Below, piece after piece: positions 11,694 through 61,239 of a stretch of 64,000 bases of DNA; the first letter of the stretch is position 1; the number at the start of each line of letters is the position of its first letter. The DNA is taken from NCBI RefSeq assembly GCF_001677475.2, contig NZ_CP015229.1. One strand, 5' to 3'. This stretch comes from Escherichia coli. Lineage in GTDB: Bacteria > Pseudomonadota > Gammaproteobacteria > Enterobacterales > Enterobacteriaceae. The notes under the pieces are model-generated. The model did not search any database and had not been told where the DNA came from. It saw nothing but the letters and a program-made list of their open reading frames with translations. The position numbers and the translations under genes are program-made.

Positions 11694-12209
11694 GTGTTTG
11701 ATATCGGTTTTAGCGAACTGCTATTGGTGTTCATCATCGGCCTCGTCGTTCTGGGGCCGCAACGACTGCCTGTGGCTGTAAAAACGGTCGCGGGCTGGAT
11801 TCGCGCGTTGCGTTCACTGGCGACAACGGTGCAGAACGAACTGACCCAGGAGTTAAAACTCCAGGAGTTTCAGGACAGTCTGAAAAAGGTTGAAAAGGCG
11901 AGCCTCACTAACCTGACGCCCGAACTGAAAGCGTCGATGGATGAACTACGCCAGGCCGCGGAGTCGATGAAGCGTTCCTACGTTGCAAACGATCCTGAAA
12001 AGGCGAGTGATGAAGCGCACACCATCCACAACCCGGTGGTGAAAGACAATGAAGCTGCGCATGAAGGCGTAACGCCTGCTGCTGCACAAACGCAGGCCAG
12101 TTCGCCGGAACAGAAGCCAGAAACCACGCCAGAGCCGGTGGTAAAACCTGCTGCGGACGCTGAACCGAAAACCGCTGCACCTTCCCCTTCGTCGAGTGAT
12201 AAACCGTAA
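11694..12209 (+). CDS. tatB: Twin-arginine translocase subunit TatB
   Basis: [26 protein letters not shown], 171 aa. Confidence 0.95.
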
Positions 12210-12211
12210 AC

Positions 12212-12988
12212 ATGTCTGTAGAAGATACTCAACCGCTTATCACGCATCTGATTGAGCTGCGTAAGCGTCTGCTGAACTGCATTATCGCGGTGATCGTGAT
12301 ATTCCTGTGTCTGGTCTATTTCGCCAATGACATCTATCACCTGGTATCCGCGCCATTGATCAAGCAGTTGCCGCAAGGTTCAACGATGATCGCCACCGAC
12401 GTGGCCTCACCGTTCTTTACGCCGATCAAGCTGACCTTTATGGTGTCGCTGATTCTGTCAGCGCCGGTGATTCTCTATCAGGTGTGGGCGTTTATCGCCC
12501 CAGCGCTGTATAAGCATGAACGTCGCCTGGTGGTGCCGCTGCTAGTTTCCAGCTCTCTGTTGTTTTATATCGGCATGGCGTTCGCCTACTTTGTGGTCTT
12601 TCCGCTGGCATTTGGCTTCCTTGCCAATACCGCGCCGGAAGGGGTACAGGTATCCACCGACATCGCCAGCTATTTAAGCTTCGTTATGGCGCTGTTTATG
12701 GCGTTTGGTGTCTCCTTTGAAGTGCCGGTGGCAATTGTGCTGTTGTGCTGGATGGGGATTACTTCGCCAGAGGATTTACGCAAAAAACGCCCGTATGTGC
12801 TGGTTGGCGCATTCGTTGTCGGGATGCTGCTGACGCCGCCGGATGTCTTCTCGCAAACGCTGTTGGCGATCCCGATGTACTGTCTGTTTGAAATCGGTGT
12901 CTTCTTCTCACGCTTTTACGTTGGTAAAGGGCGAAATCGGGAAGAGGAAAACGACGCTGAAGCAGAAAGCGAAAAAACTGAAGAATAA
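12212..12988 (+). CDS. tatC: Twin-arginine translocase subunit TatC
   Basis: 258 aa polytopic membrane protein in tatABC order. Confidence 0.95.
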
Positions 12989-13029
12989 ATTCAACCGCCC
13001 GTCAGGGCGGTTGTCATATGGAGTACAGG

Positions 13030-14342
<1,313 letters not shown>

Positions 14343-14463
14343 TTACGCTAAGTTAATTATATTCCCCAGTTTGCGTTGTACCGTCAGAGTTCACGCTAAT
14401 TTAACAAATTTACAGCATCGCAAAGATGAACGCCGTATAATGGGCGCAGATTAAGAGGCTACA

Positions 14464-15957
14464 ATGGACGCCATGAAATATAACGATTTACGCGACTTCT
14501 TGACGCTGCTTGAACAGCAGGGTGAGCTAAAACGTATCACGCTCCCGGTGGATCCGCATCTGGAAATCACTGAAATTGCTGACCGCACTTTGCGTGCCGG
14601 TGGGCCTGCGCTGTTGTTCGAAAACCCTAAAGGCTACTCAATGCCGGTGCTGTGCAACCTGTTCGGTACGCCAAAGCGCGTGGCGATGGGCATGGGGCAG
14701 GAAGATGTTTCGGCGCTGCGTGAAGTTGGTAAATTATTGGCGTTTCTGAAAGAGCCGGAGCCGCCAAAAGGTTTCCGCGACCTGTTTGATAAACTGCCAC
14801 AGTTTAAGCAAGTATTGAACATGCCGACAAAGCGGCTGCGTGGTGCGCCGTGTCAGCAAAAAATTATCTCCGGCGATGACGTCGATCTTCACCGTATCCC
14901 CATTATGACCTGCTGGCCGGAAGATGCCGCGCCACTGATTACCTGGGGGTTGACCGTGACGCGTGGCCCGCATAAAGAGCGGCAGAATCTGGGTATTTAT
15001 CGTCAACAGTTGATTGGTAAAAATAAGCTGATTATGCGCTGGCTGTCGCATCGCGGCGGCGCGCTGGATTTCCAGGAGTGGTGTGCGGCGCATCCGGGCG
15101 AACGTTTCCCGGTTTCTGTGGCGCTGGGTGCTGATCCCGCCACAATTCTCGGTGCAGTCACGCCCGTTCCAGATACGCTTTCAGAGTATGCGTTTGCCGG
15201 ATTGCTGCGCGGCACCAAGACCGAAGTGGTGAAGTGTATCTCCAATGACCTTGAAGTGCCCGCCAGTGCGGAGATTGTGCTGGAAGGGTATATCGAACAA
15301 GGCGAAACTGCGCCGGAAGGGCCGTATGGCGACCACACCGGTTACTATAACGAAGTCGATAGTTTCCCGGTATTTACCGTGACGCATATTACCCAGCGTG
15401 AAGATGCGATTTATCATTCCACCTATACCGGGCGTCCGCCGGATGAACCTGCGGTGCTGGGTGTCGCACTGAACGAAGTGTTTGTGCCGATTCTGCAAAA
15501 ACAGTTCCCGGAAATTGTCGATTTTTACCTGCCGCCGGAAGGCTGCTCTTATCGCCTGGCGGTAGTGACGATCAAAAAACAGTACGCCGGACACGCGAAG
15601 CGCGTCATGATGGGCGTCTGGTCGTTCTTACGCCAGTTTATGTACACTAAGTTTGTGATCGTTTGCGATGATGACGTCAACGCACGCGACTGGAACGATG
15701 TGATTTGGGCGATTACCACCCGTATGGACCCGGCGCGGGATACTGTTCTGGTAGAAAATACGCCTATTGATTATCTGGATTTTGCCTCGCCTGTCTCCGG
15801 GCTGGGTTCAAAAATGGGGCTGGATGCCACGAATAAATGGCCAGGGGAAACCCAGCGTGAATGGGGACGTCCCATCAAAAAAGATCCAGATGTTGTCGCG
15901 CATATTGACGCCATCTGGGATGAACTGGCTATTTTTAACAACGGTAAAAGCGCCTGA
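14464..15957 (+). CDS. ubiD: UbiD-family 3-octaprenyl-4-hydroxybenzoate decarboxylase
   Basis: 497 aa; conserved position. Confidence 0.95.
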
Positions 15958-16002
15958 TGCGCGTTTGTTTTGCCCTATTTATCGATCCGACAGAGAAAGC
16001 GC

Positions 16003-16704
16003 ATGACAACCTTAAGCTGTAAAGTGACCTCGGTAGAAGCTATCACGGATACCGTATATCGTGTCCGCATCGTGCCAGACGCGGCCTTTTCTTTTCGTGC
16101 TGGTCAGTATTTGATGGTAGTGATGGATGAGCGCGACAAACGTCCGTTCTCAATGGCCTCGACGCCGGATGAAAAAGGGTTTATCGAGCTGCATATTGGC
16201 GCTTCTGAAATCAACCTTTACGCAAAAGCAGTCATGGACCGCATCCTCAAAGATCATCAAATCGTGGTCGATATTCCCCACGGAGAAGCGTGGCTGCGCG
16301 ATGATGAAGAGCGTCCGATGATTTTGATTGCGGGCGGCACCGGGTTCTCTTATGCCCGCTCGATTTTGCTGACAGCGTTGGCGCGTAACCCAAACCGTGA
16401 TATCACCATTTACTGGGGCGGGCGTGAAGAGCAGCATCTGTATGATCTCTCCGAGCTTGAGGCGCTTTCGTTAAAGCACCCTGGTCTGCAAGTGGTGCCG
16501 GTGGTTGAACAACCGGAAGCGGGCTGGCGTGGGCGTACTGGCACCGTGTTAACGGCGGTATTGCAGGATCACGGTACGCTGGCAGAGCATGATATCTATA
16601 TTGCCGGACGTTTTGAGATGGCGAAAATCGCCCGTGATCTGTTTTGCAGTGAGCGTAATGCGCGGGAAGATCGCCTGTTTGGCGATGCGTTTGCATTTAT
16701 CTGA
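16003..16704 (+). CDS. fre: NAD(P)H-flavin reductase
   Basis: Start at [21 protein letters not shown] (233 aa); ferredoxin-NADP reductase fold. Confidence 0.9.
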
Positions 16705-16775
16705 GATATAAAAAACCCGCCCCTGACAGGCGGGAAGAACGGCAACTAAAACTTTATTCAGTGGCATTTAGATCT

Positions 16776-16884
16776 ATGTCGCATCCGGCAAACAATTGCC
16801 CGATGCGACGCTGTCGCGTCTTATCGTGCCTACAAATAGTTCTGAACCGTAGGCCGGATAAGGCGTTAACGCCGCATCCGGCAA
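16776..16884. repeat. REP/BIME-type palindromic repeat cluster
   Basis: gcatccggca...gcctacaaa...aggccggataaggcgttaacgccgcatccggca units between convergent fre and fadA. Confidence 0.8.
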
Positions 16885-16888
16885 GTGG

Positions 16889-18061
<1,173 letters not shown>

Positions 18062-20251
18062 TTAAGCCGTTTTCAGGTCGCCAACCGGACGGGCTGGCTC
18101 AACCGGGGGATAGTACGGTTCGTTATGACGTGCTTTATTACGCAGACCTTCCGGCACTTCATACAGCGGGCCGAGGTGCTGATATTGCTGTGCCATATCG
18201 AGGTATTTCGCGCTGCCGAGGGTGTCCAGCCAGCGGAACGCGCCGCCGTGGAACGGAGGGAAGCCCAGGCCGTAGACCAGCGCCATATCCGCTTCTGCCG
18301 GAGTGGCGATAATGCCCTCTTCCAGACAGCGCACCACTTCGTTGACCATCGGGATCATCATGCGGGCGATAATCTCTTCCTCGCTGAAATCGCGCTTCGG
18401 CTGGCTGACTTCTGCCAGCAGGTCGTCAACGGCGGCGTCTTCTTCTTTCTTCGGCTTACCTTTGCTGTCTTCTTTATAACGCCAGAAACCGAGGCCGTTC
18501 TTCTGACCAAAGCGGTTGGCATCAAACAGCGCGTCGATGGCATCGTGATAATCTTTCTGCATCCGCTGCGGGAAACCCGCTGCCATCACGGCCTGAGCGT
18601 GGTGCGCGGTATCAACCCCCACGACATCCAGCAGGTATGCCGGACCCATTGGCCAGCCGAACTGTTTTTCCATCACTTTGTCGATCTTGCGGAAATCCGC
18701 GCCGTCGCGCAGCAGCTGGCTGAAACCCGCGAAGTAGGGGAACAGCACGCGGTTAACGAAGAATCCGGGGCAGTCGTTAACCACAATCGGCGTTTTGCCC
18801 ATCTTGCTCGCCCAGGCGACGACTTTCGCGATAGTTTCGTCGGAGCTTTTCTCGCCGCGAATAATTTCCACCAACGGCATTCGGTGGACCGGGTTAAAGA
18901 AGTGCATCCCGCAGAAGTTTTCCGGACGTTCCAGCGCGTTGGCCAGCTCGCTGATAGGAATGGTTGAAGTGTTAGAGGCCAGCACGGTATCCGGGCGTAC
19001 TTTTTGTTCGGTTTCTGCCAGTACGGCTTTTTTCACTTTCGGGTTTTCAACAACCGCTTCTACCACAATATCCACGCGGTCAAATCCGGCGTAGTCGAGC
19101 GTTGGGTGGATCGTGGAGATCACGCCAGCCAGTTTCAGACCATCGATCTTGCCGCGCTCAAGCTGCTTGTTCAGCAGTTTCGCGGCTTCGGTCATGCCGA
19201 GGGTTAACGACTTGTCGTTAATATCTTTCATAACAACCGGCACGCCTTTCCATGCAGACTGGTAAGCGATGCCGCCGCCCATAATGCCTGCGCCCAGCAC
19301 AGCGGCCTGTTTTGGGGTTTCAACGTCTTTGGTGAGTTTCTTCGCTTTGCCTTTTACATATTGATCGTTAAGGAAAATGCCGACCAGTGCGCGAGCTTCG
19401 TTGGTATGCGCCAGCGGGACAAAACTTTTGTTTTCCAGATTTAAGGCTTCTTCACGACCAAAACGGGCCGCCGCTTCAATGGTTTTTACTGCGGTGATGG
19501 GGGCCGGATAATGTTTCCCCGCCGTTTGTGCGACCATCCCTTTAGCGATGGTGAAACTCATGGTGGCTTCAATCTTGCTCAGTTTTAGCGGTTCCAGCTT
19601 CGGCTGACGTTTCGCTTTCCAGTCGAGGTCGCCGTTAATGGCCTGGCGTAAAATCGCTATCGCCCCTTCAATCAGTTTTTCTGCTTTGACTACGCCATCC
19701 ACCAAACCGATTTTCAGCGCCTGATCCGCGCCGACATCTTTACCGGCGGCAATGATCTCCAGCGCACTGTCAGCGCCCAGCATACGTGGCATACGTACAG
19801 AACCGCCAAAGCCCGGCATGATGCCCAGTTTGGTTTCCGGCAGACCGATGCGCAGATCCGGCGTCGCCAGACGATAATCGGTCGCCAGCACGCATTCGCA
19901 GCCACCGCCCAGCGCATAGCCGTTGACGGCGGCAATGGTCGGCACCGGCAGATCTTCCAGGCGATTAAACACGCTATTGGCAAAGTGCAGCCATTGACTT
20001 AACTGTTCTTCAGGAACGAGGAACAGGGACAAAAATTCGGTGATATCAGCACCGACGATAAAGGCTGCTTTGTTCGAACGCAGCAGCAGCCCTTTTAGAT
20101 CTGATTGCTGTTCCAGCACGCCGATGGCCTCGCCGAGGCTGGCGACGGTCGCAGTGTCGAGTTTATTAACTGAACCTGGGGCATCAAATACCAGTTCGGC
20201 AATGCCATCTTCCAGCCAGTCAAGGTACAGGGTGTCGCCTTTGTAAAGCAT
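18062..20251 (-). CDS. fadB: Fatty acid oxidation complex alpha subunit
   Basis: Start at [16 protein letters not shown] (729 aa); the ORF track begins 42 codons upstream. Confidence 0.95.
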
Positions 20252-49555: not shown

Positions 49556-50266
49556 ATGGCGGAGAATCAATCCACCGTAGAAAATGCAAAAGAGAAACTG
49601 GATCGGTGGTTGAAAGATGGCATCACCACGCCGGGTGGAAAACTCCCTTCAGAAAGAGAGCTGGGAGAACTGCTGGGCATTAAACGTATGACGCTGCGCC
49701 AGGCGTTGTTGAACCTCGAGGCAGAATCCAAAATCTTCCGTAAAGATCGTAAGGGGTGGTTCGTGACCCAGCCGCGATTTAATTACAGTCCGGAGCTGTC
49801 GGCGAGCTTTCAGCGGGCCGCAATTGAGCAAGGGCGAGAGCCTTCCTGGGGGTTTACCGAGAAAAACCGTACCAGCGATATTCCCGAGACGCTCGCGCCA
49901 CTGATTGCAGTGACGCCATCAACTGAACTCTATCGCATCACCGGCTGGGGGGCGCTGGAAGGACATAAAGTTTTCTATCACGAAACATATATTAATCCTG
50001 AAGTTGCTCCGGGTTTTATTGAACAACTTGAAAACCACTCATTTTCTGCAGTCTGGGAAAAGTGCTACCAAAAAGAGACGGTAGTAAAAAAATTGATTTT
50101 CAAACCCGTCAGAATGCCGGGCGATATCAGCAAGTATCTTGGCGGTTCTGCGGGTATGCCTGCGATCTTAATTGAAAAGCATCGCGCCGACCAGCAAGGC
50201 AATATTGTCCAGATAGATATTGAATATTGGCGATTTGAGGCCGTAGACCTCATCATTAATCTGTAG
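49556..50266 (+). CDS. yihL: Putative GntR-type transcriptional regulator YihL
   Basis: 236 aa; N-terminal HTH (LPSERELGELLGIKRMTLRQAL). Confidence 0.8.
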   Translation: MAENQSTVENAKEKLDRWLKDGITTPGGKLPSERELGELLGIKRMTLRQALLNLEAESKIFRKDRKGWFVTQPRFNYSPELSASFQRAAIEQGREPSWGFTEKNRTSDIPETLAPLIAVTPSTELYRITGWGALEGHKVFYHETYINPEVAPGFIEQLENHSFSAVWEKCYQKETVVKKLIFKPVRMPGDISKYLGGSAGMPAILIEKHRADQQGNIVQIDIEYWRFEAVDLIINL

Positions 50267-50273
50267 GTGTTTT

Positions 50274-51254
50274 ATGGTGACAATAAATAACGCAAGAAAG
50301 ATTCTACAACGTGTCGACACTCTTCCTCTTTATTTACATGCTTATGCCTTTCATTTAAATATGCGGCTGGAAAGAGTGTTGCCTGCTGATTTACTTGATA
50401 TCGCAAGTGAAAATAATCTACGTGGCGTCAAAATCCATGTTCTGGATGGCGAGCGTTTTTCTCTTGGTAATATGGACGATAAAGAACTCTCTGCCTTTGG
50501 GGATAAAGCCCGCCGTCTGAACCTTGATATTCATATTGAAACCAGTGCCTCAGATAAAAAATCTATTGACGAAGCCGTCGCCATCGCGTTGAAAACTGGG
50601 GCATCCTCCGTACGTTTTTATCCGCGTTATGAAGGTAATTTGCGCGACGTATTATCGATTATCGCTAACGACATTGCCTATGTACGGGAAACGTATCAGG
50701 ACAGCGGCCTGACTTTTACGATCGAGCAGCATGAAGATTTAAAAAGTCATGAGCTGGTGTCGCTGGTCAAAGAAAGTGAGATGGAGTCTCTTTCCTTACT
50801 GTTTGATTTTGCGAACATGATCAATGCAAATGAGCATCCCATCGACGCTTTAAAAACGATGGCACCGCATATTACCCAGGTCCATATCAAAGATGCCTTG
50901 ATCGTTAAAGAACAGGGTGGCCTGGGTCATAAAGCCTGTATTTCAGGTCAGGGGGATATGCCCTTCAAAGCGTTATTAACGCACCTTATCTGCCTGGGTG
51001 ATGATGAGCCGCAGGTGACGGCATATGGCCTGGAAGAAGAGGTTGATTATTATGCGCCGGCGTTCCGCTTTGAAGACGAAGATGATAATCCGTGGATCCC
51101 TTATCGCCAGATGAGTGAAACACCCCTACCAGAAAATCATTTACTGGATGCGCGGTTACGTAAAGAAAAAGAAGATGCAATTAATCAGATAAATCATGTG
51201 CGTAACGTACTACAACAAATCAAACAAGAGGCAAACTATCTTCTGAACCACTAA
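50274..51254 (+). CDS. yihM: Sugar phosphate isomerase/epimerase-family (TIM barrel) protein YihM
   Basis: 326 aa; conserved position. Confidence 0.8.
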   Translation: MVTINNARKILQRVDTLPLYLHAYAFHLNMRLERVLPADLLDIASENNLRGVKIHVLDGERFSLGNMDDKELSAFGDKARRLNLDIHIETSASDKKSIDEAVAIALKTGASSVRFYPRYEGNLRDVLSIIANDIAYVRETYQDSGLTFTIEQHEDLKSHELVSLVKESEMESLSLLFDFANMINANEHPIDALKTMAPHITQVHIKDALIVKEQGGLGHKACISGQGDMPFKALLTHLICLGDDEPQVTAYGLEEEVDYYAPAFRFEDEDDNPWIPYRQMSETPLPENHLLDARLRKEKEDAINQINHVRNVLQQIKQEANYLLNH

Positions 51255-51355
51255 TAAGTTTTAACTCATACGCAGTTAATAAAACCATTCCATATGAATG
51301 GTCGGTATCTTATTGCCTTTAAAACAGTGATTTTAAAAATCGCTTAGGGGATGTT

Positions 51356-52621
51356 ATGCTCACGAAAAAGAAATGGGCGTTATTTAGTCTATTAACACTG
51401 TGTGGCGGTACAATTTATAAATTACCGTCGCTGAAAGATGCGTTTTATATCCCGATGCAGGAATATTTCCATTTGACCAATGGTCAAATTGGTAATGCTA
51501 TGTCGGTAAACTCATTTGTCACCACAGTGGGCTTTTTTCTGTCTATTTATTTTGCCGATAAACTACCGCGCAGATACACCATGTCACTCTCACTCATTGC
51601 GACAGGATTACTGGGTGTTTATTTGACGACAATGCCGGGGTATTGGGGCATCCTCTTTGTCTGGGCGCTATTTGGCGTTACTTGCGACATGATGAACTGG
51701 CCGGTCTTGCTCAAGTCGGTAAGTCGATTGGGCAATAGCGAACAACAAGGTCGGTTGTTTGGCTTCTTCGAAACAGGGCGTGGCATTGTCGATACCGTGG
51801 TGGCATTTTCTGCGTTGGCAGTATTTACCTGGTTTGGCAGTGGCTTATTGGGTTTTAAAGCAGGCATCTGGTTCTATTCCCTTATTGTGATTGCCGTAGG
51901 CATTATTATTTTCTTTGTCCTGAATGACAAAGAAGAGGCACCGTCCGTTGAGGTGAAAAAAGAAGACGGAGCATCGCAAAACACCAGTATGACCTCGGTG
52001 CTGAGAGACAAAACCATCTGGCTTATCGCTTTCAACGTCTTCTTCGTTTACGCGGTTTACTGTGGCCTGACATTCTTCATTCCATTCCTGAAAAACATCT
52101 ATCTATTGCCCGTTGCGTTGGTGGGGGCTTACGGCATCATTAACCAATATTGTCTGAAAATGATTGGAGGACCGATTGGTGGCATGATTTCAGATAAGAT
52201 CCTGAAATCGCCGAGTAAATATCTATGCTACACCTTTATCATCAGTACCGCTGCGCTCGTACTGTTGATTATGCTGCCGCACGAAAGTATGCCGGTCTAT
52301 TTAGGGATGGCATGTACATTAGGCTTTGGCGCGATAGTCTTTACACAGCGAGCCGTATTTTTTGCACCTATCGGCGAAGCAAAAATTGCTGAAAATAAAA
52401 CAGGCGCGGCGATGGCGTTGGGTAGCTTTATTGGTTACGCCCCGGCGATGTTCTGCTTCAGTCTGTATGGCTACATTCTGGATTTAAATCCGGGGATTAT
52501 TGGCTACAAAATCGTGTTTGGCATTATGGCCTGCTTCGCATTCTGTGGTGCGGTGGTTTCCGTAATGCTGGTTAAGCGTATTAGCCAACGTAAGAAAGAG
52601 ATGCTGGCGGCTGAAGCTTAA
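51356..52621 (+). CDS. yihN: MFS transporter YihN
   Basis: 421 aa polytopic membrane protein. Confidence 0.85.
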   Translation: MLTKKKWALFSLLTLCGGTIYKLPSLKDAFYIPMQEYFHLTNGQIGNAMSVNSFVTTVGFFLSIYFADKLPRRYTMSLSLIATGLLGVYLTTMPGYWGILFVWALFGVTCDMMNWPVLLKSVSRLGNSEQQGRLFGFFETGRGIVDTVVAFSALAVFTWFGSGLLGFKAGIWFYSLIVIAVGIIIFFVLNDKEEAPSVEVKKEDGASQNTSMTSVLRDKTIWLIAFNVFFVYAVYCGLTFFIPFLKNIYLLPVALVGAYGIINQYCLKMIGGPIGGMISDKILKSPSKYLCYTFIISTAALVLLIMLPHESMPVYLGMACTLGFGAIVFTQRAVFFAPIGEAKIAENKTGAAMALGSFIGYAPAMFCFSLYGYILDLNPGIIGYKIVFGIMACFAFCGAVVSVMLVKRISQRKKEMLAAEA

Positions 52622-52680: not shown

Positions 52681-53469
52681 TCAGGATACTTCTTGCTCAG
52701 CAACCACCAGTTCAACATTCTCTTCACTTAACAACTGGCAGAAAGAATTGGGAGGCGGGGCATCAGTAAAAAAAGCCCTGACATTCCGTGCATTGCCAAT
52801 TGAAACGGCAGCAGACGCGGCAAACTTCGTATGATCGGCCACTAACAATGTATTCCGCGCATGTTTAATCATCGTTCTTGCGACTAACGCTTCATTGACA
52901 TCAAATTCCAGTAGGGTGCCGTCATGTTCAATGGCACCTATACTGGTGATTAAATAATCTGCGCGGAAGCCTTCAATAAAATCCACGGCTCCTGGGCCGA
53001 TAATCCCGCCGTTATGAGCGCGTAAAGTGCCTCCCGGCACCATCACTTCAATATCCTGATTCTTATAAAGAATCTGTGCCACACGTAGGCTGTTAGTGAT
53101 AATGCGTAAATCACGACGGTTGAGTAATGCCCTGGCAACGGCTTCTACGGTTGTACCGATGGTGATAAAGACGGTACAGCGTTCGGGAAGGTAATCGGCG
53201 ACTGCCTCAGCGATCGCCCGTTTCTCGGCGGTGAGCGAAAGTTCCCGTTGCTCAAAAGCGGTATTCATGACGCTGGAGACGCGCCCGGCCCCTCCATGAT
53301 GACGGGTGATCAACCCCTGCTCACTGAGTTTTCGGATATCCCGGCGCACGGTTTGCGTTGAAACATCCAGCAGTTGTGCCAGTTCTTCAATATTCATATA
53401 ACCGCGTTCTGCGATTAGATGAACGAGTTGGTCATGGCGTGGATTACCTGTCACTTCGATGATACTCAT
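52681..53469 (-). CDS. DeoR-family transcriptional repressor (YihW/CsqR-like)
   Basis: 262 aa; N-terminal HTH (IEELAQLLDVSTQTVRRDIRKL) and sugar-phosphate-binding C-terminal domain; homologous but not identical to K-12 YihW as I recall it. Confidence 0.85.
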   Translation of the reverse strand: MSIIEVTGNPRHDQLVHLIAERGYMNIEELAQLLDVSTQTVRRDIRKLSEQGLITRHHGGAGRVSSVMNTAFEQRELSLTAEKRAIAEAVADYLPERCTVFITIGTTVEAVARALLNRRDLRIITNSLRVAQILYKNQDIEVMVPGGTLRAHNGGIIGPGAVDFIEGFRADYLITSIGAIEHDGTLLEFDVNEALVARTMIKHARNTLLVADHTKFAASAAVSIGNARNVRAFFTDAPPPNSFCQLLSEENVELVVAEQEVS

Positions 53470-53508: not shown

Positions 53509-54405
53509 TTACGCATAAAGTGACAAAAATGATTCGGTTTGCTCACGATTAGGAATGCCGGCCCGACCGCCAGGCTGGGTACATTTCATCGCGGCAACCG
53601 CACTGGCAAAACGAATAGCCTCTTTTGTTGGCATTTTTTCTGCCAACGCTACCGCGAGTGCGCCGTGAAAAACATCGCCTGCTCCAGTGGTATCAACCAC
53701 ATTGACAGAAAATGCCTCCTGTTGACACAAATGATCATCTTCAATCCACAACGATCCTTCAGAACCCAGCGTAACATACACTTTACCTGCTGTTTGTGTC
53801 GTTGCCTGGAACAAACCTTCTTCAGGTGACTGCAGGCCAGTCATGCGTTTCAGCCCCGGTGTTGAGAACACGGCGTGATCGGCAAGCGCGACAAGTGGAG
53901 AAATATCCTGCGGTGTCATATCGGCGTCTAAAAGCGTTGTCACCCCCGCAAGGCGCGCTAGCGAGAATGCTTTTTCAGTACCGCTATGCCAGCGAACATC
54001 GGCCAGAATCAGATCATAACGAGAGAAATCGATCGCTTCTAACCATTCGGCATCAGTACCGAGATCGGGACTTGGATAATTAACGATAATCCGTTCGCCA
54101 TGCTGATCAACGAGGATCGCTGATTGCGACGAACGGGCGTTAGGATATCGGCGGCAAAATGCGGTATTGACGCCCCAACCCTCAAGTTCTGCAAGTAAGG
54201 TATTTCCACAACTGTCATCGCCGACGCGACCGATGAAATCAACCTCCACGCCAAGCTTTGCGATTGCAACAGCGGCTGTTGCTGCCGGGCCGCCACCAAT
54301 CTCAAGATAATGATTTGCCTGATATTTCCCGCCGCCATCCGGCAGAGTGAGCAAAGAATAAATCCTGTCCTGAACTGTGATACCCACGCATGCAATTTTT
54401 GTCAT
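53509..54405 (-). CDS. PfkB-family sugar kinase (YihV-like)
   Basis: Start at [16 protein letters not shown]; [11 protein letters not shown] and [12 protein letters not shown] motifs; ORF track extends to 54456. Confidence 0.85.
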
Positions 54406-54577
54406 ATTTGTCTTGTCCTGTTTAATTTTGTCGTCTTTGGTCAATTTAAATGACACAAATGATCAAATTAGTGATGTGTGTCGTGTTTTTGAACATAAAT
54501 TACAAATATGCTCAAAAACAGACGAAAACGAATTTTCAATTGTCATTATTTTGTCAATGTCAGACAGGAGAGTATTC

Positions 54578-55456
54578 ATGGCAACCATTGCATTTCTCGG
54601 GCTGGGGCAGATGGGTAGCCCAATGGCTAACAATCTATTGCGAAAAGGGCATTCATTGCAGGTATTTGATGTCAATGCACAGGCCGTCGATGCGCTAGTT
54701 ACGCAGGGGGCCACTGCGGCACAAACCCCAGCGGAAGCGGCAGCAGGCGCTGAATTTATCATCACTATGCTTCCCAATGGTGACATTGTTCGACAGGTTC
54801 TGTTGGGGGAAAAAGGCGTCTGTGAGGCTGTTTCATCTGACGCGTTATTGATTGATATGTCGACTATTCATCCCTTACAGACCGATGCATTAATACGGGA
54901 GTTACAAGAAAAAGGCATCAGTATGATGGACGCCCCCGTGGGCAGAACATCCGTGAATGCGATTGATGGCACATTGCTGATTTTAGCGGGTGGCACTGAT
55001 GAGCAGATTGCGCGTGCACGCCCGATTCTCATGTGCATGGGTAATGAGCTGGTCGAGGCTGGCGGCCCAGGAATGGGGATCCGCGTGAAGCTAATTAACA
55101 ACTATATGAGCATTGCGCTTAATGCGCTGTCCTCCGAGGCCGCTGTGTTATGTGAGTCACTGGGATTAAATCTTGATGTCGCAATTAAGGTGATGAGTGG
55201 TACGGCAGCAGGGAAAGGACATTTTACGACCACCTGGCCTGGCAAAGTGCTGAAAGGCGATCTTTCACCCGCCTTCATGGTGGATCTGGCGTTGAAAGAT
55301 CTGCGTATTGCAGTTGACGTCGCTCGGGAGACGGGGGCACCGCTCAATATGGGGATTGCAGCAGAAAGTTATTACGCCGCAGCAAGTCAAGACGGCAAAG
55401 GGCGGCAGGACTGGAGCGCCCTGCTAAATCAGGTTCGCCAGCAGGCTGGTCTTTAA
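54578..55456 (+). CDS. NAD-dependent beta-hydroxyacid dehydrogenase-family reductase (YihU-like)
   Basis: Start at [20 protein letters not shown] (Rossmann GLGQMG) with RBS caggagag upstream; about 292 aa. Confidence 0.85.
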
Positions 55457-55480: not shown

Positions 55481-56368
55481 ATGTCATCCCACTTCACCCC
55501 ATTTACGCTGAAAGATATCTCCCGCCCAGGTGGTGGATTCGCCATGTTAGCTGTCGATCAGCGTGAGGCCATGCGCCTGATGTTTGCGGCAGCAGGGCAG
55601 CCCAAACCCATCGCCGACAGTGTACTCACCGATTTTAAAGTTGCCGCGACCCGAATCCTTTCTCCTTATGCTTCTGCCGTTCTGGCGGATAAACAATTTT
55701 GTCTTGAGCAAATAGTCGAGCAGGGCGCTGTTGCTAATTCTTGCGGCCTGATTGTCGCTGCCGATCTTTTTATCCCAGGTAATGGCATCCCGGTTGATAG
55801 CGTTGAAATAGATATGTCCGTCGACCCGCATAAAGCCCGTGAAATGGGGGCTAAGGCAATGAAATTACTTGTACTCTGGCGTGAAGATGAACCCGCAGAG
55901 GAACGTCTGGCAATGGTTGATAAATTTGTTCGTCGCTGCCGTAGTGCCGGACTGGTTAGCATTATTGAACCTGTGGTGCGTCCACCTCGTCGCGGTTGGG
56001 ACTTTGATCGTGAAAGCGCCATTGCCGCGGCCGCCGCAGAGCTTGGTGGAACAGAGGCTGATCTTTACAAAGCCGAGATGCCATTAGGGGGCAAAGGCGA
56101 TGAAAAAACCTTACTTGCCGCCTGTCAGCAACTTAACGATCAGATGAAGATGCCGTGGGTAATTCTTTCTTCTGGCGTTGATGCCGATATTTTTGGCCGT
56201 GCAGTAAGTATTGCCATGAAAGGTGGGGCGTCGGGCTTCCTGGCTGGACGAGCGGTTTGGGCGTCGGTTGTTGGTGCACAAGATCCACAAACTATGCTGC
56301 GCGATGTCTCCGTTCCACGCTTGCAACGGCTGGCTGAAATTGTCGATGAAGGTATCGCGCAACGCTAA
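55481..56368 (+). CDS. Class I (LacD-like) ketose-phosphate aldolase (YihT-like)
   Basis: 295 aa; [14 protein letters not shown] and [12 protein letters not shown] motifs. Confidence 0.85.
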
Positions 56369-56400: not shown

Positions 56401-57411
56401 ATGGATAAAAGTACCCAGGTTTTATTTTCAGATATTGGGAAAGTCACCACTCAATATGTTGAAGTACCACACCAGGAACTTAAACCGCACGAAGTGCGGA
56501 TTGCGCCTGTGTTCTATGGGATATGCGGTTCGGATCTGCATGTTCTGAAAGGCGGTCATCCGTTTGCCAAACCACCTGTCGTCCCCGGTCATGAAATTGC
56601 AGCGCGCGTTGCGGAAGTTGGCAGCGACGTTAAAAATGTACAGCCGGGCGATCATGTTGTGGTCGATCCCATCATGGCTTGCATGGAATGCCGAGCCTGC
56701 AAAGCAGGACGTTTTAATCTTTGTGAACCACCGCAGGTTGCTGGTTTTCGCGCACCGGGCTTTGCTCGCTCACAACACATTGTTCCTGCGCGTAATTGCC
56801 ATGTCGCACCAGCCTCTTTACCGCTAAAAGTGTTAGCCTTTGCCGAACCGGCGGCTTGTGCTCGTCACTGCGTTAACCGAATGCCGAAAGCTTCTCTGGA
56901 AAGCGTACTGGTGATTGGTGCCGGAACGATAGGCTTATCCATCGTGCAGGCACTGCGCATTATGGGGGCAGGTAAGATTACCGTGATTGAACCTGACGCT
57001 GCCAAACGCGCGCTGGCGTTAAAGCTGGGCGCAGCAGAAGTTTGGGCACCAGGTGAGCTGGCCGCAGATGTGCGATTTACGGGGGCGATTGATGTCGTTG
57101 CAGCGCAGGCCACGCTTAACGATGCATGTACCCGTGTATATGCCGGAGGCACCGTCGTGTGCATGGGCGTACCAAGTGGGCCGCGTGAAATACCATTACC
57201 TATGATGCAACGTTTCGAGCGTGACTTGCTCAACTCTGGCATGTACATCCCTGAAGATTTCGATGCTGTTATCGAATGGCTGGCGGATGGGCGGTTTGAT
57301 ACCAGTGAACTGGTTACCGATTTATTTGCCATTGAGGATGCAGCGGCGGCATTCGAACGCGCGCAGCAAAATGACTCCATAAAGGTCATGCTGCAATTTG
57401 CGCCGGAATGA
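56401..57411 (+). CDS. Zinc-dependent medium-chain dehydrogenase/reductase
   Basis: 336 aa; catalytic-zinc GHE motif (PVVPGHEIAARV), four-cysteine structural zinc cluster (CMECRACKAGRFNLC), Rossmann VIGAGTIGL. Confidence 0.85.
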   Translation: MDKSTQVLFSDIGKVTTQYVEVPHQELKPHEVRIAPVFYGICGSDLHVLKGGHPFAKPPVVPGHEIAARVAEVGSDVKNVQPGDHVVVDPIMACMECRACKAGRFNLCEPPQVAGFRAPGFARSQHIVPARNCHVAPASLPLKVLAFAEPAACARHCVNRMPKASLESVLVIGAGTIGLSIVQALRIMGAGKITVIEPDAAKRALALKLGAAEVWAPGELAADVRFTGAIDVVAAQATLNDACTRVYAGGTVVCMGVPSGPREIPLPMMQRFERDLLNSGMYIPEDFDAVIEWLADGRFDTSELVTDLFAIEDAAAAFERAQQNDSIKVMLQFAPE

Positions 57412-57480: not shown

Positions 57481-58914
57481 ATGAGTCAAATCACCAGTCC
57501 TGCAACTTATTCAATTAGTCGGCCACAGGACGTAATTGATATTGTTAATAAGAACTCTGCAATCAACACCAGTATCGGCGTTATTTTTATTGCTTTGGGC
57601 GGCATATTGATTGATGCCTACCAGGCGGCGATGGTGGGGTTTGGTAATAAATACATTGCCGCTCAATTCGGCATTTCGCCGGGTCTTGCTGCAACCGTCA
57701 ATGCATCAGTATTAATCGCCGCGTTAATTGGCGGTTTATTAGCGAACCGAGTAATAAACCGCTTTGGGCAAAAGCGGGCATTTATTATTGGCATGGGGCT
57801 GTGCACCATCGGTGCTGCAGCGGTAGCTATTGCTCCCAGTATCTGGTGGGTGCTGGTGTGCCGCGTCATCATGGGCTTTGGTTTAGGCATCGACTTCCCT
57901 TTGGCAACCAATGCCGTGGCAGAGCTTCGTGGTTCAACGTCGAAGAAAACCGGAACGTCGGTCAACCTCTGGCAAATGGCCTGGTATGTTTCGACAACCG
58001 TTGTTTATTTGGTGCTTTTGCCGCTGCTTCTGTCGGGTATCGCTGAAGAACAATTGTGGCGTTACGGAATATTCATCGGAGCTATTTTTGCAGTCATCTT
58101 CATGATTTTGCGTTACTTCTTTATTGGTGAATCCGCAATGTGGGCTGCACGCGTCGGGCGTTACCAGGAAGCGTGCGACATTCTGGGAAAACGTTATGGT
58201 GTTCAGGCTCGCGTTGCGGCATCGGGTACAACAGAAGCGAAATTCTCGGAAAAAGCAGAGAATAAATACAGTGGTGGATATGGCATCTTATTTAATGATC
58301 GTTACCGCAAACGCACCATTCTTGGTTGTGTCGTGGCAACCATGCAGGCGTGGCAATATAACGCCGTAGGTGTTTATCTTCCTCTTACGTTGGCGGGAAT
58401 AATAAGTGGCGGGCTTACTGGCGCGTTGACCGGTTCTGCCGTCGTGAATGCCCTTTGTGGGGTGACAGGTGGGATGATCGGCTCGTTTATTCTCCAACGA
58501 CTGGGTACTCGCCGACAGTCGATGTATGGATTTGCTGTTGTGACCTTAGCATTGCTGTCGTTAGGCGCACTGGCAACGACTAATCCCTGGCTGTCTTTAG
58601 GGTTATTGGGATCAATTATTTTCTTCCATTCAGCGGGTCCTGGTGGGCTGGGCATGACCATTGCCACACTCTCTTATCCTCCCGCTATTCGTCCTACTGG
58701 GGTCGGATTTGCCCGCGCTATTATGCGCACAGGGGCAATTGCAGGACTCATTTTCTGGCCGATGCTGTGGGGTACGTTGAAAACTGAAGCGTTTTATTGG
58801 TTGGCAATTGTGCCATTCCTGGGGTTCCTGACCTGCGTATTGATTAATTGGGAACCTTTGGGAGCAAATGTTGATGCTGAGGATGCAGAGGTTCTGGCTG
58901 AATTGAAGAAATAA
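57481..58914 (+). CDS. MFS transporter, subfamily unclear
   Basis: 477 aa polytopic membrane protein with a central hydrophilic loop. Confidence 0.8.
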   Translation: MSQITSPATYSISRPQDVIDIVNKNSAINTSIGVIFIALGGILIDAYQAAMVGFGNKYIAAQFGISPGLAATVNASVLIAALIGGLLANRVINRFGQKRAFIIGMGLCTIGAAAVAIAPSIWWVLVCRVIMGFGLGIDFPLATNAVAELRGSTSKKTGTSVNLWQMAWYVSTTVVYLVLLPLLLSGIAEEQLWRYGIFIGAIFAVIFMILRYFFIGESAMWAARVGRYQEACDILGKRYGVQARVAASGTTEAKFSEKAENKYSGGYGILFNDRYRKRTILGCVVATMQAWQYNAVGVYLPLTLAGIISGGLTGALTGSAVVNALCGVTGGMIGSFILQRLGTRRQSMYGFAVVTLALLSLGALATTNPWLSLGLLGSIIFFHSAGPGGLGMTIATLSYPPAIRPTGVGFARAIMRTGAIAGLIFWPMLWGTLKTEAFYWLAIVPFLGFLTCVLINWEPLGANVDAEDAEVLAELKK

Positions 58915-58951
58915 ATTAATGCGCATCGGCTTAAACCGATGCGCATTAATT
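58914..58951. repeat. 16-bp perfect inverted repeat (stem-loop or operator)
   Basis: aattaatgcgcatcgg cttaaa ccgatgcgcattaatt, starting at the stop codon of the upstream transporter gene. Confidence 0.8.
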
Positions 58952-59012
58952 CAAACTGCCCACGTTTAGTGGTTCGTATCCCAGATTTCTCGCCTACCAG
59001 GAGAGGAAAATT

Positions 59013-60362
59013 ATGTCTGAAAAGTTACCCGCACCGCGTGAAGGGCTTTCCGGTAAAGCCATGAGACGTGTCGTTATGGGCAGTTTCGCAGGCGCGTTAA
59101 TGGAATGGTATGACTTCTTTATTTTTGGCACGGCAGCAGGACTGGTATTTGCACCGCTGTTTTATCCAGACAGCGATCCTTTTATAGGTCTTATAGCTTC
59201 CTTTGCGACCTTTGGTGTCGGTTTTCTGACTCGTCCTTTAGGTGGCATCGTCTTTGGTCATTTTGGCGATAAAATCGGGCGAAAAATAACACTTATCTGG
59301 ACGCTGGCTATTGTCGGTTGCTCCACATTTTTGATTGGTTTTATTCCGACGTATCAGGAAATTGGCATTTGGGCACCGCTTGTATTAATGGTGCTGCGTT
59401 TGATTCAGGGCTTTGGTCTTGGTGGCGAGTACGGCGGAGCGGCATTGATGACCATAGAATCAGCGCCCGAATCCCGACGCGGATTTTTAGGTTCACTCCC
59501 GCAAACGGCTGCGTCTGTGGGTATTATGCTGGCAACCGGTATTTTTGCTCTCTGTAACCATTTTCTTACTTCGGAGCAGTTTCTCTCCTGGGGATGGCGC
59601 ATTCCGTTTTGGCTTTCTGCGGTGATGTTGATCGTTGGGCTGTTTATCCGCCTGCATACCGAAGAAACGCTGGATTTTCAAAAGCAAAAAACGACGAATA
59701 ATAAAGAAAAGTCCGTTCCTCCGTTGATTGAATTATTCAAAAAACATCCACGAAATATTTTATTGGCACTGGGTGCGAGGCTGGCGGAAAGTGTCTCCTC
59801 TAATATTATTAACGCCTTTGGTATTGTCTATATTTCCAGCCAATTAGCATTGTCGCGAGATATTCCCCTGACGGGTATGTTGATTGCCTCGGCGATCGGT
59901 ATTTTCAGTTGTCCATTGGTTGGATGGTTATCAGATCGTATAGGTCAAAAAAGTCTGTATTTGTCGGGAGCAGGATTTTGTGTCCTGTTCGCGTTTCCTT
60001 TCTTCTTATTACTGGATAGCAAAAGTACGCTCATCATCTGGTGCAGTATGATCCTCGGCTACAACTTAGGTCCGACGATGATGTTTGCCGTGCAGCCAAC
60101 ACTTTTCACCCGCATGTTCGGTACCAAAGTACGATATACCGGCCTTTCTTTTGCTTATCAATTTTCCGCGATTCTTGGCGGACTAAGCCCCCTTATCGCC
60201 TCAAGTTTGCTGGCGCTAGGGGGAGGAAAACCGTGGTATGTCGCTCTGTTTTTATTTGCTGTCTCAGTTCTTTCCTTTGTTTGCGTCTGGCTGATTGAGC
60301 CGACCGATGAACAAGAAACCGCTTCTTACCGCTACATCAGGGAACAATCTCATGAAAACTGA
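59013..60362 (+). CDS. MFS transporter of metabolite:H+ symporter type (ProP/KgtP/ShiA-like)
   Basis: 449 aa; WYDFFIFG and GLGGEYGGAALM signature segments. Confidence 0.8.
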   Translation: MSEKLPAPREGLSGKAMRRVVMGSFAGALMEWYDFFIFGTAAGLVFAPLFYPDSDPFIGLIASFATFGVGFLTRPLGGIVFGHFGDKIGRKITLIWTLAIVGCSTFLIGFIPTYQEIGIWAPLVLMVLRLIQGFGLGGEYGGAALMTIESAPESRRGFLGSLPQTAASVGIMLATGIFALCNHFLTSEQFLSWGWRIPFWLSAVMLIVGLFIRLHTEETLDFQKQKTTNNKEKSVPPLIELFKKHPRNILLALGARLAESVSSNIINAFGIVYISSQLALSRDIPLTGMLIASAIGIFSCPLVGWLSDRIGQKSLYLSGAGFCVLFAFPFFLLLDSKSTLIIWCSMILGYNLGPTMMFAVQPTLFTRMFGTKVRYTGLSFAYQFSAILGGLSPLIASSLLALGGGKPWYVALFLFAVSVLSFVCVWLIEPTDEQETASYRYIREQSHEN

Positions 60363-61239
60363 ACGAAAAAACGAGCATTACCTGGCGCTACAACAGGCGT
60401 TTGACGCGCCATGGCCTGGGCCTGTAGGAGAGTTAGTGACGCTGGAAAAAGGCAATATTCACCTGCAGATTTATCCGCATGATGGTGCCAGGATAACCTC
60501 GTTAAAGGCATTTGGTTCTGAAGTATTACGCCAATGGCAGCCGCAGCGCAGAGCTTTTCAGTATGGCTGTTTCCCAATGGTGCCGTGGGCAGGGCGACTG
60601 GGGAATGCGACGCTGAATGCTGGTGGGCAATGTTATTCTTTACCCGCCAATAAACCACCACATGCGTTGCATGGTATGGCTTGTTACTCAACGTGGGAAA
60701 TCATCGACAAAACAATAGATTCCCTGACTTTACGTATGCCCCTGGCTTCACCGTGGCCCTGGCAAGGGGAAGTGATTCAGACTTTTTTGCTGGAGAACGA
60801 TGCGCTGGTTTTGCAACTGGAAATCCATTCACATACCGATACATTCCCGGCCTCTGCAGGCTGGCATCCGTGGTTTGCGAAAAAGCTGACTCCGCAAAAT
60901 ACAGAATCGTTGCAGGTGCTTTTTGATGCGGACTGGCAAGAGGAAGCGGGTAGTGATGAACTGCCAACTGGAAATCGCATCTCTCCTCAAGCTGGTCCCT
61001 GGGATGACTGTTTTGGTTTTTATGACGGGGTGAAGGTTAAGTTACTGTGGCCTGGTAAACTCACGATGACCATGACCTCTTCTGCAAACAGTCTGGTGGT
61101 ATTTGATAAACAGCCCGATGCCACCTGTGTTAATCCGCTTACTCAGGCACCTAACGCAATAAATCTAACGCCGGAATTGGTGACATCAGATAAGCCGCTG
61201 GTCATCGAAACTCGTTGGCAATTTACACCTGAATCTTAA
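60352..61239 (+). CDS. Aldose 1-epimerase family protein (YihR-like mutarotase)
   Basis: Start at MKTERKNEHYLALQQAFD, overlapping the upstream transporter stop by 11 nt; ORF track starts at 60295. Confidence 0.75.
   Translation: MKTERKNEHYLALQQAFDAPWPGPVGELVTLEKGNIHLQIYPHDGARITSLKAFGSEVLRQWQPQRRAFQYGCFPMVPWAGRLGNATLNAGGQCYSLPANKPPHALHGMACYSTWEIIDKTIDSLTLRMPLASPWPWQGEVIQTFLLENDALVLQLEIHSHTDTFPASAGWHPWFAKKLTPQNTESLQVLFDADWQEEAGSDELPTGNRISPQAGPWDDCFGFYDGVKVKLLWPGKLTMTMTSSANSLVVFDKQPDATCVNPLTQAPNAINLTPELVTSDKPLVIETRWQFTPES

Follow-up and report, generated by a model that had tools for sequence, protein, structure and literature searches.

Turnover of the sulfosugar sulfoquinovose is a major branch of the sulfur cycle, and in the gut the 2,3-dihydroxypropanesulfonate (DHPS) that is excreted feeds producers of H2S. 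In Escherichia coli K-12 the pathway is a sulfoglycolytic variant of the Embden-Meyerhof-Parnas route (sulfo-EMP), encoded by yihO-P-Q-R-S-T-U-V-W and ompL (Denger 2014; Sharma 2021, PMC8006165). At the K-12 locus ompL-yihO-P-Q-R-S-T-U run one way and yihV-csqR the other. About 24% of complete E. coli genomes, including the probiotic Nissle 1917 and many B2 and extraintestinal pathogenic (ExPEC) strains, carry a short cassette instead of the K-12 one. The only paper that we found on this short form (Kaznadzey et al. 2025, PMC12608037) describes a "short yih cassette (yihTUVW)" that is truncated, enriched in pathogens, present in Nissle 1917 and inverted relative to the long form, and treats it as a probably non-functional remnant whose role has probably been lost. 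We analysed a stretch of 64,000 nucleotides of E. coli DNA (contig NZ_CP015229.1, assembly GCF_001677475.2; the window in what follows) that carries this published short cassette at the yih locus, and within it the gene of a zinc-dependent dehydrogenase (56401-57411, plus strand). The short cassette consists of eight genes and is not truncated. It contains no enzyme known to make the ketose for its kinase, and the dehydrogenase stands in the place of the isomerase gene yihS. We propose, with about an even chance of being right, that the dehydrogenase interconverts a 6-deoxy-6-sulfo-hexitol and sulfofructose (SF) and so supplies the kinase.

The contact residues known from the crystal structures of the K-12 enzymes (PMC8006165) were mapped onto the window homologues of the kinase, aldolase and reductase, written here YihV', YihT' and YihU'. 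YihV' keeps the sulfonate triad K27/N109/R138, the sugar contacts D13/S95, D162 and the catalytic D244. YihT' keeps the Schiff-base lysine K193 together with A26, S226, S227 and R253, and YihU' keeps R123, N174 and S178. Every published contact to SF, to sulfofructose-1-phosphate (SFP) and to the sulfonate is thus kept in the three proteins. YihU' also scored 579 bits against NF012005, the NCBIfam equivalog of sulfolactaldehyde (SLA) 3-reductase, with a cut-off of 348, and YihT' is 56-90% identical to the aldolases of those other class I loci of the dehydrogenase type that gave a match. Because the contact residues and the NF012005 score are kept, the cassette should still handle a 6-sulfo-2-ketohexose, by way of SFP, to dihydroxyacetone phosphate (DHAP) and SLA, and then DHPS. 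The kinase, aldolase and reductase that define the sulfo-EMP pathway are all present in the window cassette, and its isomerase, either YihS (PF07221) or SqvD, is absent. From sulfofructose onward the cassette would work like the sulfo-EMP pathway.

The gene order is yihU-yihT-yihS in K-12 and yihU'-yihT'-dehydrogenase in the window, so that the dehydrogenase does sit where the pathway isomerase would be expected, as the initial annotation had remarked. Beyond this position K-12 has a mutarotase gene and two transporter genes, and the window has two transporter genes and the epimerase-like gene. The dehydrogenase gene was found in 1,327 of 5,426 complete E. coli genomes (about 24%) and yihS in 4,018 of the same 5,426; the two counts sum to 5,345, within the total, a comparison of totals and not genome by genome. 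These population totals are as expected for alternative alleles of one locus. All but one of the 1,327 dehydrogenase genes (1,326) were full-length, and two of the 1,327 matches lay on records labelled as plasmid and not chromosome. The short-cassette strains have no yihS homologue elsewhere in the genome (PMC12608037).

A search of a large protein collection returned a compact family of dehydrogenases at 55-90% identity, followed by a drop to 49% or less. Its members came from Enterobacterales (Edaphovirga, Leminorella, Jejubacter, Buttiauxella), from Alphaproteobacteria (Rhodopseudomonas palustris, Telmatospirillum, Rhodovastum, Pleomorphomonas) and from Streptomyces, Propionibacteriaceae and Vibrio. 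Sixteen loci outside E. coli, with dehydrogenases 45-94% identical to the window enzyme, were examined. Six were annotated with Pfam (R. palustris BisB18, Streptomyces, Vibrio rhodolitus and three further contigs, metagenomic sequence included) and the other ten were from three Citrobacter, Trabulsiella, Budvicia, Tenebrionibacter, Sutterella, Pleomorphomonas and two Prauserella. The scan of genome contigs gave at least ten usable loci, eight at 65-94% identity and the two of Prauserella at 45%; among the matches listed, the neighbourhoods of 70 relatives at about 30% identity were uninformative. In 16 of the 16 loci the dehydrogenase gene adjoins a PfkB kinase gene and the gene of a class I or class II aldolase of SFP type, and no homologue of YihS or YihQ was observed in any of them. 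SqvD was not found in the six Pfam-annotated loci; it was absent from the BLAST reference set used on the others. Because of its linkage to an SFP-type aldolase, the dehydrogenase family is tied to the catabolism of C-sulfonates.

The dehydrogenase, the aldolase, two major facilitator superfamily (MFS) transporters and an aldose-1-epimerase-family protein are 47-73% identical between the E. coli locus and the alphaproteobacterial, betaproteobacterial and Streptomyces loci, the last without the epimerase. The eight-gene architecture recurs in Alpha-, Beta- and Gammaproteobacteria, and the Actinobacteria keep it without the epimerase; of the 16 other loci, 12 pair the dehydrogenase with an epimerase-family gene. 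In the alphaproteobacterial and actinobacterial loci identity to the window proteins is only 23-31% for the kinase, reductase and regulator, and in R. palustris and Streptomyces the kinases and reductases have not kept the K-12-type contact residues. The aldolases of the same two loci carry the residues expected of a class I SFP aldolase, the Schiff-base Lys193 and Arg253. In Vibrio, Budvicia and one further contig a class II aldolase replaces the class I enzyme, and Tenebrionibacter has a more distant class II-like protein. The best matches of the Vibrio class II aldolase in the Protein Data Bank (PDB) were HpSqiA (8Q58, E 1.7e-108) and YaSqiA (8Q57), which are experimentally validated class II SFP aldolases. 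One contig (L088) has an ATP-binding cassette (ABC) transporter in place of the MFS pair. Another, from the JGI metagenome 3300026363 (L089), has no reductase; the genes of its kinase, aldolase and dehydrogenase lie end to end or share a few bases, and they follow genes for SAF and GD_AH (a SuyAB-like sulfolactate sulfo-lyase), an aldehyde dehydrogenase, 2-Hacid_dh and Ldh_2 (ComC-like). To judge from these families, this set would convert SLA to sulfolactate and then to pyruvate and sulfite, and the whole looks like a complete island for taking a sulfosugar to sulfite. Since the dehydrogenase is constant while the enzymes of C3 disposal vary between loci, we place it in the upper part of the pathway.

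Some further features of these contigs were recorded. The operon of the metagenomic contig (L089, 770-7099) lies after a gene for a Bac_luciferase-family monooxygenase, and downstream of it (12074-18720) are a second aldehyde dehydrogenase and a glycyl-radical enzyme with its activase. The contig with the ABC transporter also carries a DUF2090/DeoC-like protein. A second, distant medium-chain dehydrogenase/reductase (MDR) enzyme is present in that contig (L088, 837-1868) and in both Prauserella loci (L015 and L016), where it is about 26-27% identical. Such a two-MDR arrangement could be relevant to a route from aldose through alditol to ketose.

The dehydrogenase gene of the window begins with ATG, codes for 336 amino acids and has a GGAG ribosome-binding site 7 nt 5' of the start. 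It is on the same strand as the reductase gene (54578-55456) and the aldolase gene (55481-56368), and 32 nt separate the aldolase stop, which ends at 56368, from its ATG at 56401; a site scan detected no terminator-like site in this 32-nt gap. Pfam recognised ADH_N (E 2.5e-26, residues 28-137) and ADH_zinc_N (E 2.9e-17, residues 177-295), the GroES-like catalytic domain (PF08240) and the Rossmann domain (PF00107). All of 24 aligned family members have the catalytic zinc ligands C42, H64-E65 (GHE motif) and E149 and the structural zinc site C94/C97/C100/C108; by these ligand residues the enzyme would hold both a catalytic and a structural zinc. The Rossmann motif reads G173-A-G175-T-I-G178, and its G173-x-G175-x-x-G178 pattern is also invariant among the 24. 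An AlphaFold2 model built on the same alignment had a mean pLDDT (predicted local distance difference test score) of 92.2, with an invariant loop at residues 111-120 as its sole weak block, and its Foldseek neighbours, at a template modelling (TM) score of about 0.9, were polyol, aldonate and threonine dehydrogenases of the MDR type. The alignment, the Pfam matches and the model all agree with the GHE motif, four-cysteine zinc site and Rossmann fold that had been noticed at the outset, and the coordinates agree with the earlier description of the gene as co-directional with the reductase and aldolase genes and 32 nt after the latter.

The residue at the end of strand beta-2, E197, is kept in at least 90% of the family. 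By the usual rule for MDR enzymes an acidic residue at this place goes with NAD(H) and not NADP(H), which predicts NAD(H) as the cofactor of the dehydrogenase. Three motifs (HPFAKPP, PPxVAGFR and QRFER) are specific to the family and invariant in the alignment, and the basic residues R117, in the flexible loop PPxVAGFRAPGF, and R271 and R274, in QRFER, are invariant and have no counterpart in RspB, the nearest relative with a solved structure. Our guess is that R117, R271 and R274 are sulfonate ligands, and K57 was also picked from the alignment as a candidate. The RefSeq orthologue in strain C4 is WP_000357981.1 (about 99% identical). Between E. coli and Citrobacter the rate of nonsynonymous substitution (dN) of the dehydrogenase gene is the lowest of the comparable cassette genes, 0.037 as against 0.05-0.17, and that of the epimerase-like gene the highest of those compared; only the ranking is meaningful, because the synonymous rate (dS) is saturated between the genera.

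The dehydrogenase did not reach any curated model of NCBIfam, the best score being 165 bits against a cut-off of 376. L-threonine 3-dehydrogenase (Tdh) gave 139.9 bits with NF003808 (cut-off 380) and 120.5 with TIGR00692 (cut-off 458), the RspB/YdjJ-type Zn-dependent oxidoreductase (NF007489, PRK10083) 164.8 against 376, and the equivalogs IdnD, GatD and IolM 125.2 against 469, 112.9 against 550 and 148.9 against 450, respectively. Orthology to Tdh, IdnD, GatD, IolM and PRK10083 was rejected because all these scores are far under their cut-offs; orthology to threonine dehydrogenase, which the initial annotation had named among the outcomes that would overturn its proposal, was therefore not what we found. 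Among proteins of solved structure E. coli RspB (4ILK) comes nearest in sequence, with a profile E of 2e-56, 31% identity and the PFAK loop motif in common. KEGG names RspB L-gulonate 5-dehydrogenase, and JGI gives the same name to some members of the dehydrogenase family. HpsP was also rejected as an orthologue, with about 26-27% identity in the Foldseek alignment and without an hpsOPN operon around the dehydrogenase: no HpsO- or HpsN-type genes were found in the six Pfam-annotated loci, the remaining loci being unscreened for them. In the profile search HpsP scored 134 bits, lower than RspB and Tdh, and its structure 8WWD is among the Foldseek neighbours at TM 0.83-0.86. The catalytic residues reported for HpsP, H59/E60/E139 (PMC11131964), are generic zinc ligands and have no discriminating value. 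A protein of Paracoccus wurundjeri, MDP0926266 ("threonine dehydrogenase"), was likewise discarded: translated from the supplement, it was only 27% identical. Its neighbours are a PfkB kinase and a PF01791 aldolase, it increases on sulfofucose and it shows no activity with SLA (PMC12421959), and this negative result with SLA cannot be transferred to the window enzyme because the two are not orthologues. Within the zinc MDR superfamily the dehydrogenase falls into no characterised subfamily.

The region is chromosomal E. coli sequence with 99% identity to many complete genomes. The gene order around the cassette is typA, yihL, yihM, yihN, cassette, yihX, yihY, dtd. The cassette has the following features:

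52681-53469, minus strand: yihW', DeoR-family regulator, 72% identical to K-12 CsqR, with an NCBIfam DeoR/GlpR match.
53509-54405, minus strand: yihV', homologue of the PfkB-family sulfofructose kinase, 67% identical to K-12 YihV.
54406-54577: divergent intergenic region between yihV' and yihU', AT-rich, with putative promoters and operator.
54578-55456, plus strand: yihU', sulfolactaldehyde 3-reductase, 72% identical to K-12 YihU.
55481-56368, plus strand: yihT', homologue of the class I sulfofructose-1-phosphate aldolase, 67% identical to K-12 YihT.
56401-57411, plus strand: the dehydrogenase, a zinc MDR in the yihS slot.
57481-58914, plus strand: MFS1, Sugar_tr-type transporter of 477 amino acids, with NCBIfam matches at subfamily level only.
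58912-58953: hairpin, a palindrome with a 19-bp stem over the MFS1 stop, between the transporter genes.
59013-60362, plus strand: MFS2, ShiA-like transporter of the metabolite:H+ symporter family, 449 amino acids.
60352-61239, plus strand: epimerase-like gene, aldose-1-epimerase family, overlapping MFS2 by 11 nt.

Loci with an MFS1 gene have it at 62-92% identity, and MFS1 is co-conserved with the dehydrogenase. MFS2 is 55-89% identical in other loci, and its score with TIGR00883 (407 bits) is slightly under the cut-off of 443. The epimerase-like protein is 27% identical to K-12 YihR over 164 amino acids and had a single PDB match by sequence, 3NRE. At the column of the catalytic Glu (AVEP in YihR, CVE in YeaD) it has Asn, in the motif ...DATCVNPLTQAPN..., as do its orthologues in Citrobacter, Trabulsiella, Sutterella and Vibrio; the Glu is kept in those of R. 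palustris, Budvicia, Tenebrionibacter and Pleomorphomonas. The E. coli protein may thus be no conventional mutarotase. The hairpin, a perfect palindrome (AATTAATGCGCATCGG...CCGATGCGCATTAATT) in the 98-nt gap between MFS1 and MFS2, could act as a bidirectional terminator, as an attenuator inside the operon or in RNA stability. The divergent region 54406-54577 corresponds to the yihU/V fragment that was shown to be bound by YihW (PMC12608037). A consensus scan of this region did not give any sigma-70 match; it contains repeated TTGTC/GACAA-like elements in very AT-rich sequence. At 49556-52621 yihL (GntR regulator), yihM and yihN (MFS transporter) flank the yih locus in both cassette types, and yihM codes for a TIM-barrel protein of the "sugar phosphate isomerase/epimerase family" with no NCBIfam match.

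We propose the following scheme for the cassette. A sulfonated C6 compound would be imported by one of the two MFS transporters. The dehydrogenase would then interconvert sulfoquinovitol (6-deoxy-6-sulfo-D-glucitol), or its mannitol epimer, and SF (6-deoxy-6-sulfo-D-fructose) by hydride transfer at C2, as in sorbitol dehydrogenase and the aldonate 5-dehydrogenases. YihV' would phosphorylate SF, YihT' would split SFP into DHAP and SLA, and YihU' would reduce SLA to DHPS, which would leave the cell through the other MFS transporter. We infer both the reaction of the dehydrogenase and its direction in vivo. The feedstock would be either a sulfo-alditol taken up as such or sulfoquinovose that is first reduced, by the dehydrogenase or by an unlinked reductase. 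L-gulonate 5-dehydrogenase provides the chemical analogy, since it oxidises the carbon beside the terminal CH2OH of an anionic open-chain polyol to give a 2-ketose, D-fructuronate. If the carboxylate is exchanged for CH2-SO3-, the same chemistry is proposed to turn 6-deoxy-6-sulfo-D-glucitol, which is 1-deoxy-1-sulfo-L-gulitol, into sulfofructose. GatD, which converts galactitol-1-phosphate to tagatose-6-phosphate, and IdnD are precedents for anionic polyols and are both among the structural neighbours of the model. The linkage to kinase and aldolase, with no YihS homologue found in the 16 loci, favours the earlier suggestion of an enzyme that would stand in for an isomerase by supplying the kinase with its ketose.

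Several points weigh against this scheme. No sulfo-alditol and no sulfoquinovose reductase was found in the searchable literature, and a broader search gave only papers on sulfofucose. The usual presence of an aldose-1-epimerase-family gene in the cassette suggests an aldose as the substrate, and no aldose reductase is encoded in the cassette, because of which a route that leads from sulfoquinovose by way of sulfoquinovitol to sulfofructose lacks one enzyme. Both steps might fall to the dehydrogenase, or an unlinked reductase might contribute. Sulfoquinovose did not induce the yihTUVW' genes of Nissle 1917 (PMC12608037). The sulfonate-binding residues are a guess, picked from the alignment alone, and no curated model was reached, so that a substrate assignment by homology is weak, the identity to any characterised enzyme being about 31% at most. 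That the cassette encodes a sulfoglycolytic route with redox chemistry in place of an aldose-ketose isomerase, either through a single zinc MDR acting by way of bound sulfoquinovitol, which would be a new enzymatic answer to this isomerisation in bacteria, or through the harvest, across several phyla, of a natural 6-deoxy-6-sulfo-hexitol so far undescribed as a metabolite, seems to us rather unlikely.

The strongest rival of the proposed sulfo-hexitol reaction is a role in the C3 branch, as an HpsP-like oxidoreductase for DHPS and SLA acting after aldol cleavage or on external DHPS. Oxidation of (S)-DHPS to SLA is the reaction of HpsP, itself a zinc MDR (PMC11131964) and one of the structural neighbours, and the metagenomic operon with its aldehyde dehydrogenase and SuyAB-like genes would suit a path from DHPS through SLA to sulfolactate. 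However, the likeness to HpsP is no better than that to generic MDRs, and in most loci such an activity would be redundant with the co-encoded SLA reductase, or futile, or opposed to it. It would also leave every cluster without a source of the kinase substrate, with no yihS anywhere in short-cassette E. coli, and the dehydrogenase is linked to the kinase and aldolase and not to the varying enzymes of the C3 part. The initial annotation had offered this role as its alternative; weakened by the varying C3 enzymes, and with HpsP as its precedent, it is in our judgement unlikely. A different sulfosugar comes next and is quite unlikely. Here the product would be a 6-sulfo-2-ketohexose belonging to sulfofucose and sulfotagatose or to sulforhamnose, which the enzyme would obtain from the corresponding sulfo-hexitol by oxidation or from an oxidised sulfosugar by reduction. 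LacD-family aldolases are promiscuous at C3 and C4, and another inducer would match the absent induction by sulfoquinovose in Nissle. Sulfofucose is known as a rare sulfosugar, and its breakdown through sulfotagatose by an EMP-type route has been suggested, though not found (PMC12421959). Against this, D13 and S95, with which the kinase contacts sulfofructose at its C3 and C4 hydroxyls, are both retained, and the Paracoccus MDR beside a kinase and an aldolase is just 27% identical and no orthologue.

More doubtful still is that the dehydrogenase is by itself a redox isomerase, reducing sulfoquinovose at C1 and oxidising the bound sulfoquinovitol at C2 to give sulfofructose with recycled NAD(H). 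Sulfoquinovose is the only abundant and ubiquitous sulfosugar, which matches the wide range of host habitats, and Nissle 1917, without yihS, yihQ, yihO or yihP, grows on it and has a YihW that it partly releases. The epimerase-family gene in 12 of the 16 other loci and the lack of a second encoded reductase are also in keeping with such an activity. Nevertheless, we know of no MDR that reduces an aldose and then oxidises C2. At 336 amino acids the enzyme is compact and shows neither an insertion nor any other trait of nicotinoprotein MDRs, sulfoquinovose failed to induce the cassette in Nissle, and the E. coli epimerase-like protein has Asn in place of the catalytic Glu. It is very improbable, finally, that the gene is a passenger, a generic polyol or threonine-type dehydrogenase with no role in sulfosugar breakdown, or that the whole short cassette is a decaying remnant. 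The cassette is transcriptionally unresponsive to sulfoquinovose in Nissle and was called truncated (PMC12608037), but its architecture is kept across classes of Proteobacteria and, minus the epimerase, in Actinobacteria, and the dehydrogenase has the lowest dN of the cassette and is full-length in all but one of the 1,327 E. coli genomes that have it. The models of Tdh, sorbitol dehydrogenase, GatD and IdnD, all far under their cut-offs, speak against a passenger as well.

The published work on Nissle 1917 can be read beside the proposed interconversion of a sulfo-hexitol and sulfofructose. This strain grows on sulfoquinovose about as well as K-12 although it lacks yihS, yihQ, yihO and yihP, and in an electrophoretic mobility shift assay its YihW' orthologue bound the yihU/V region and sulfoquinovose released it in part (PMC12608037). 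The growth fits with a cassette that supports the use of sulfoquinovose, and the missing induction fits with a different inducer or with constitutive expression. The dehydrogenase, the two MFS genes and the epimerase are not mentioned in the text of that paper and are not among the differentially expressed genes of its supplement, and DHPS excretion goes unreported in it. For six of the eight cassette proteins the RefSeq accession was not found in the literature. A review of sulfoquinovose catabolism from January 2026 has no dehydrogenase variant in its sulfo-EMP section, and a survey of class II SFP aldolases does not mention an alcohol dehydrogenase. In the literature that we found, the dehydrogenase, its linkage across phyla and the eight-gene unit are undescribed, the locus itself being known as the short or truncated cassette. 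The dehydrogenase may be an undescribed way of feeding the breakdown of sulfosugars. If the cassette is a complete pathway without an isomerase, it would account for the so far puzzling ability of Nissle 1917 to grow on sulfoquinovose, it would give sulfoglycolysis another enzyme logic or point to a new natural sulfonate, and it would alter how sulfoglycolytic potential is scored in metagenomes, which at present requires yihS/sqvD and yihQ.

Among the described systems, the ydjLKJIHGFE cluster of K-12 resembles the cassette in having, by RefSeq product names, a DeoR regulator, a PfkB kinase, an aldolase, zinc MDRs and two MFS transporters. It differs in its class II aldolase and in having two MDRs plus an aldo-keto reductase; YdjJ and YdjL are 29% and 24% identical to the window dehydrogenase. 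The substrates of the ydj cluster are carboxylated (2-ketose-1-phosphate) and not sulfonated, and the analogy rests on those product names and on the roles that we take the ydj MDRs to have. HpsP (8WWD; PMC11131964) is a zinc MDR acting on a sulfonated vicinal diol, so the fold can accommodate sulfonates, but it is found in hpsOPN operons of DHPS catabolism and oxidises the primary alcohol of a C3 compound. The dehydrogenase has the fold and zinc sites of RspB, IdnD, GatD, sorbitol dehydrogenase and the whitefly ketose reductase, enzymes that oxidise a secondary alcohol beside a terminal CH2OH, often of an anionic polyol, to give a 2-ketose. Unlike RspB, to which it is only 31% identical, it has invariant motifs of its own and a sulfonate and not a uronate context. 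The closest system as a whole is that of K-12, which has the same locus, a regulator, kinase, aldolase and reductase 67-72% identical to those of the window, two transporters and a mutarotase-family gene. In contrast to K-12, the window cassette is without the YihS isomerase, the YihQ sulfoquinovosidase and OmpL, its transporters are of unrelated MFS types while YihO and YihP are of the glycoside-pentoside-hexuronide (GPH) type, its epimerase is 27% identical to YihR, and it is inverted relative to the flanking genes. The short cassette of Nissle 1917 and of ExPEC strains (PMC12608037) has the same locus and the same genes, and what was described there as four genes is here a unit of eight.

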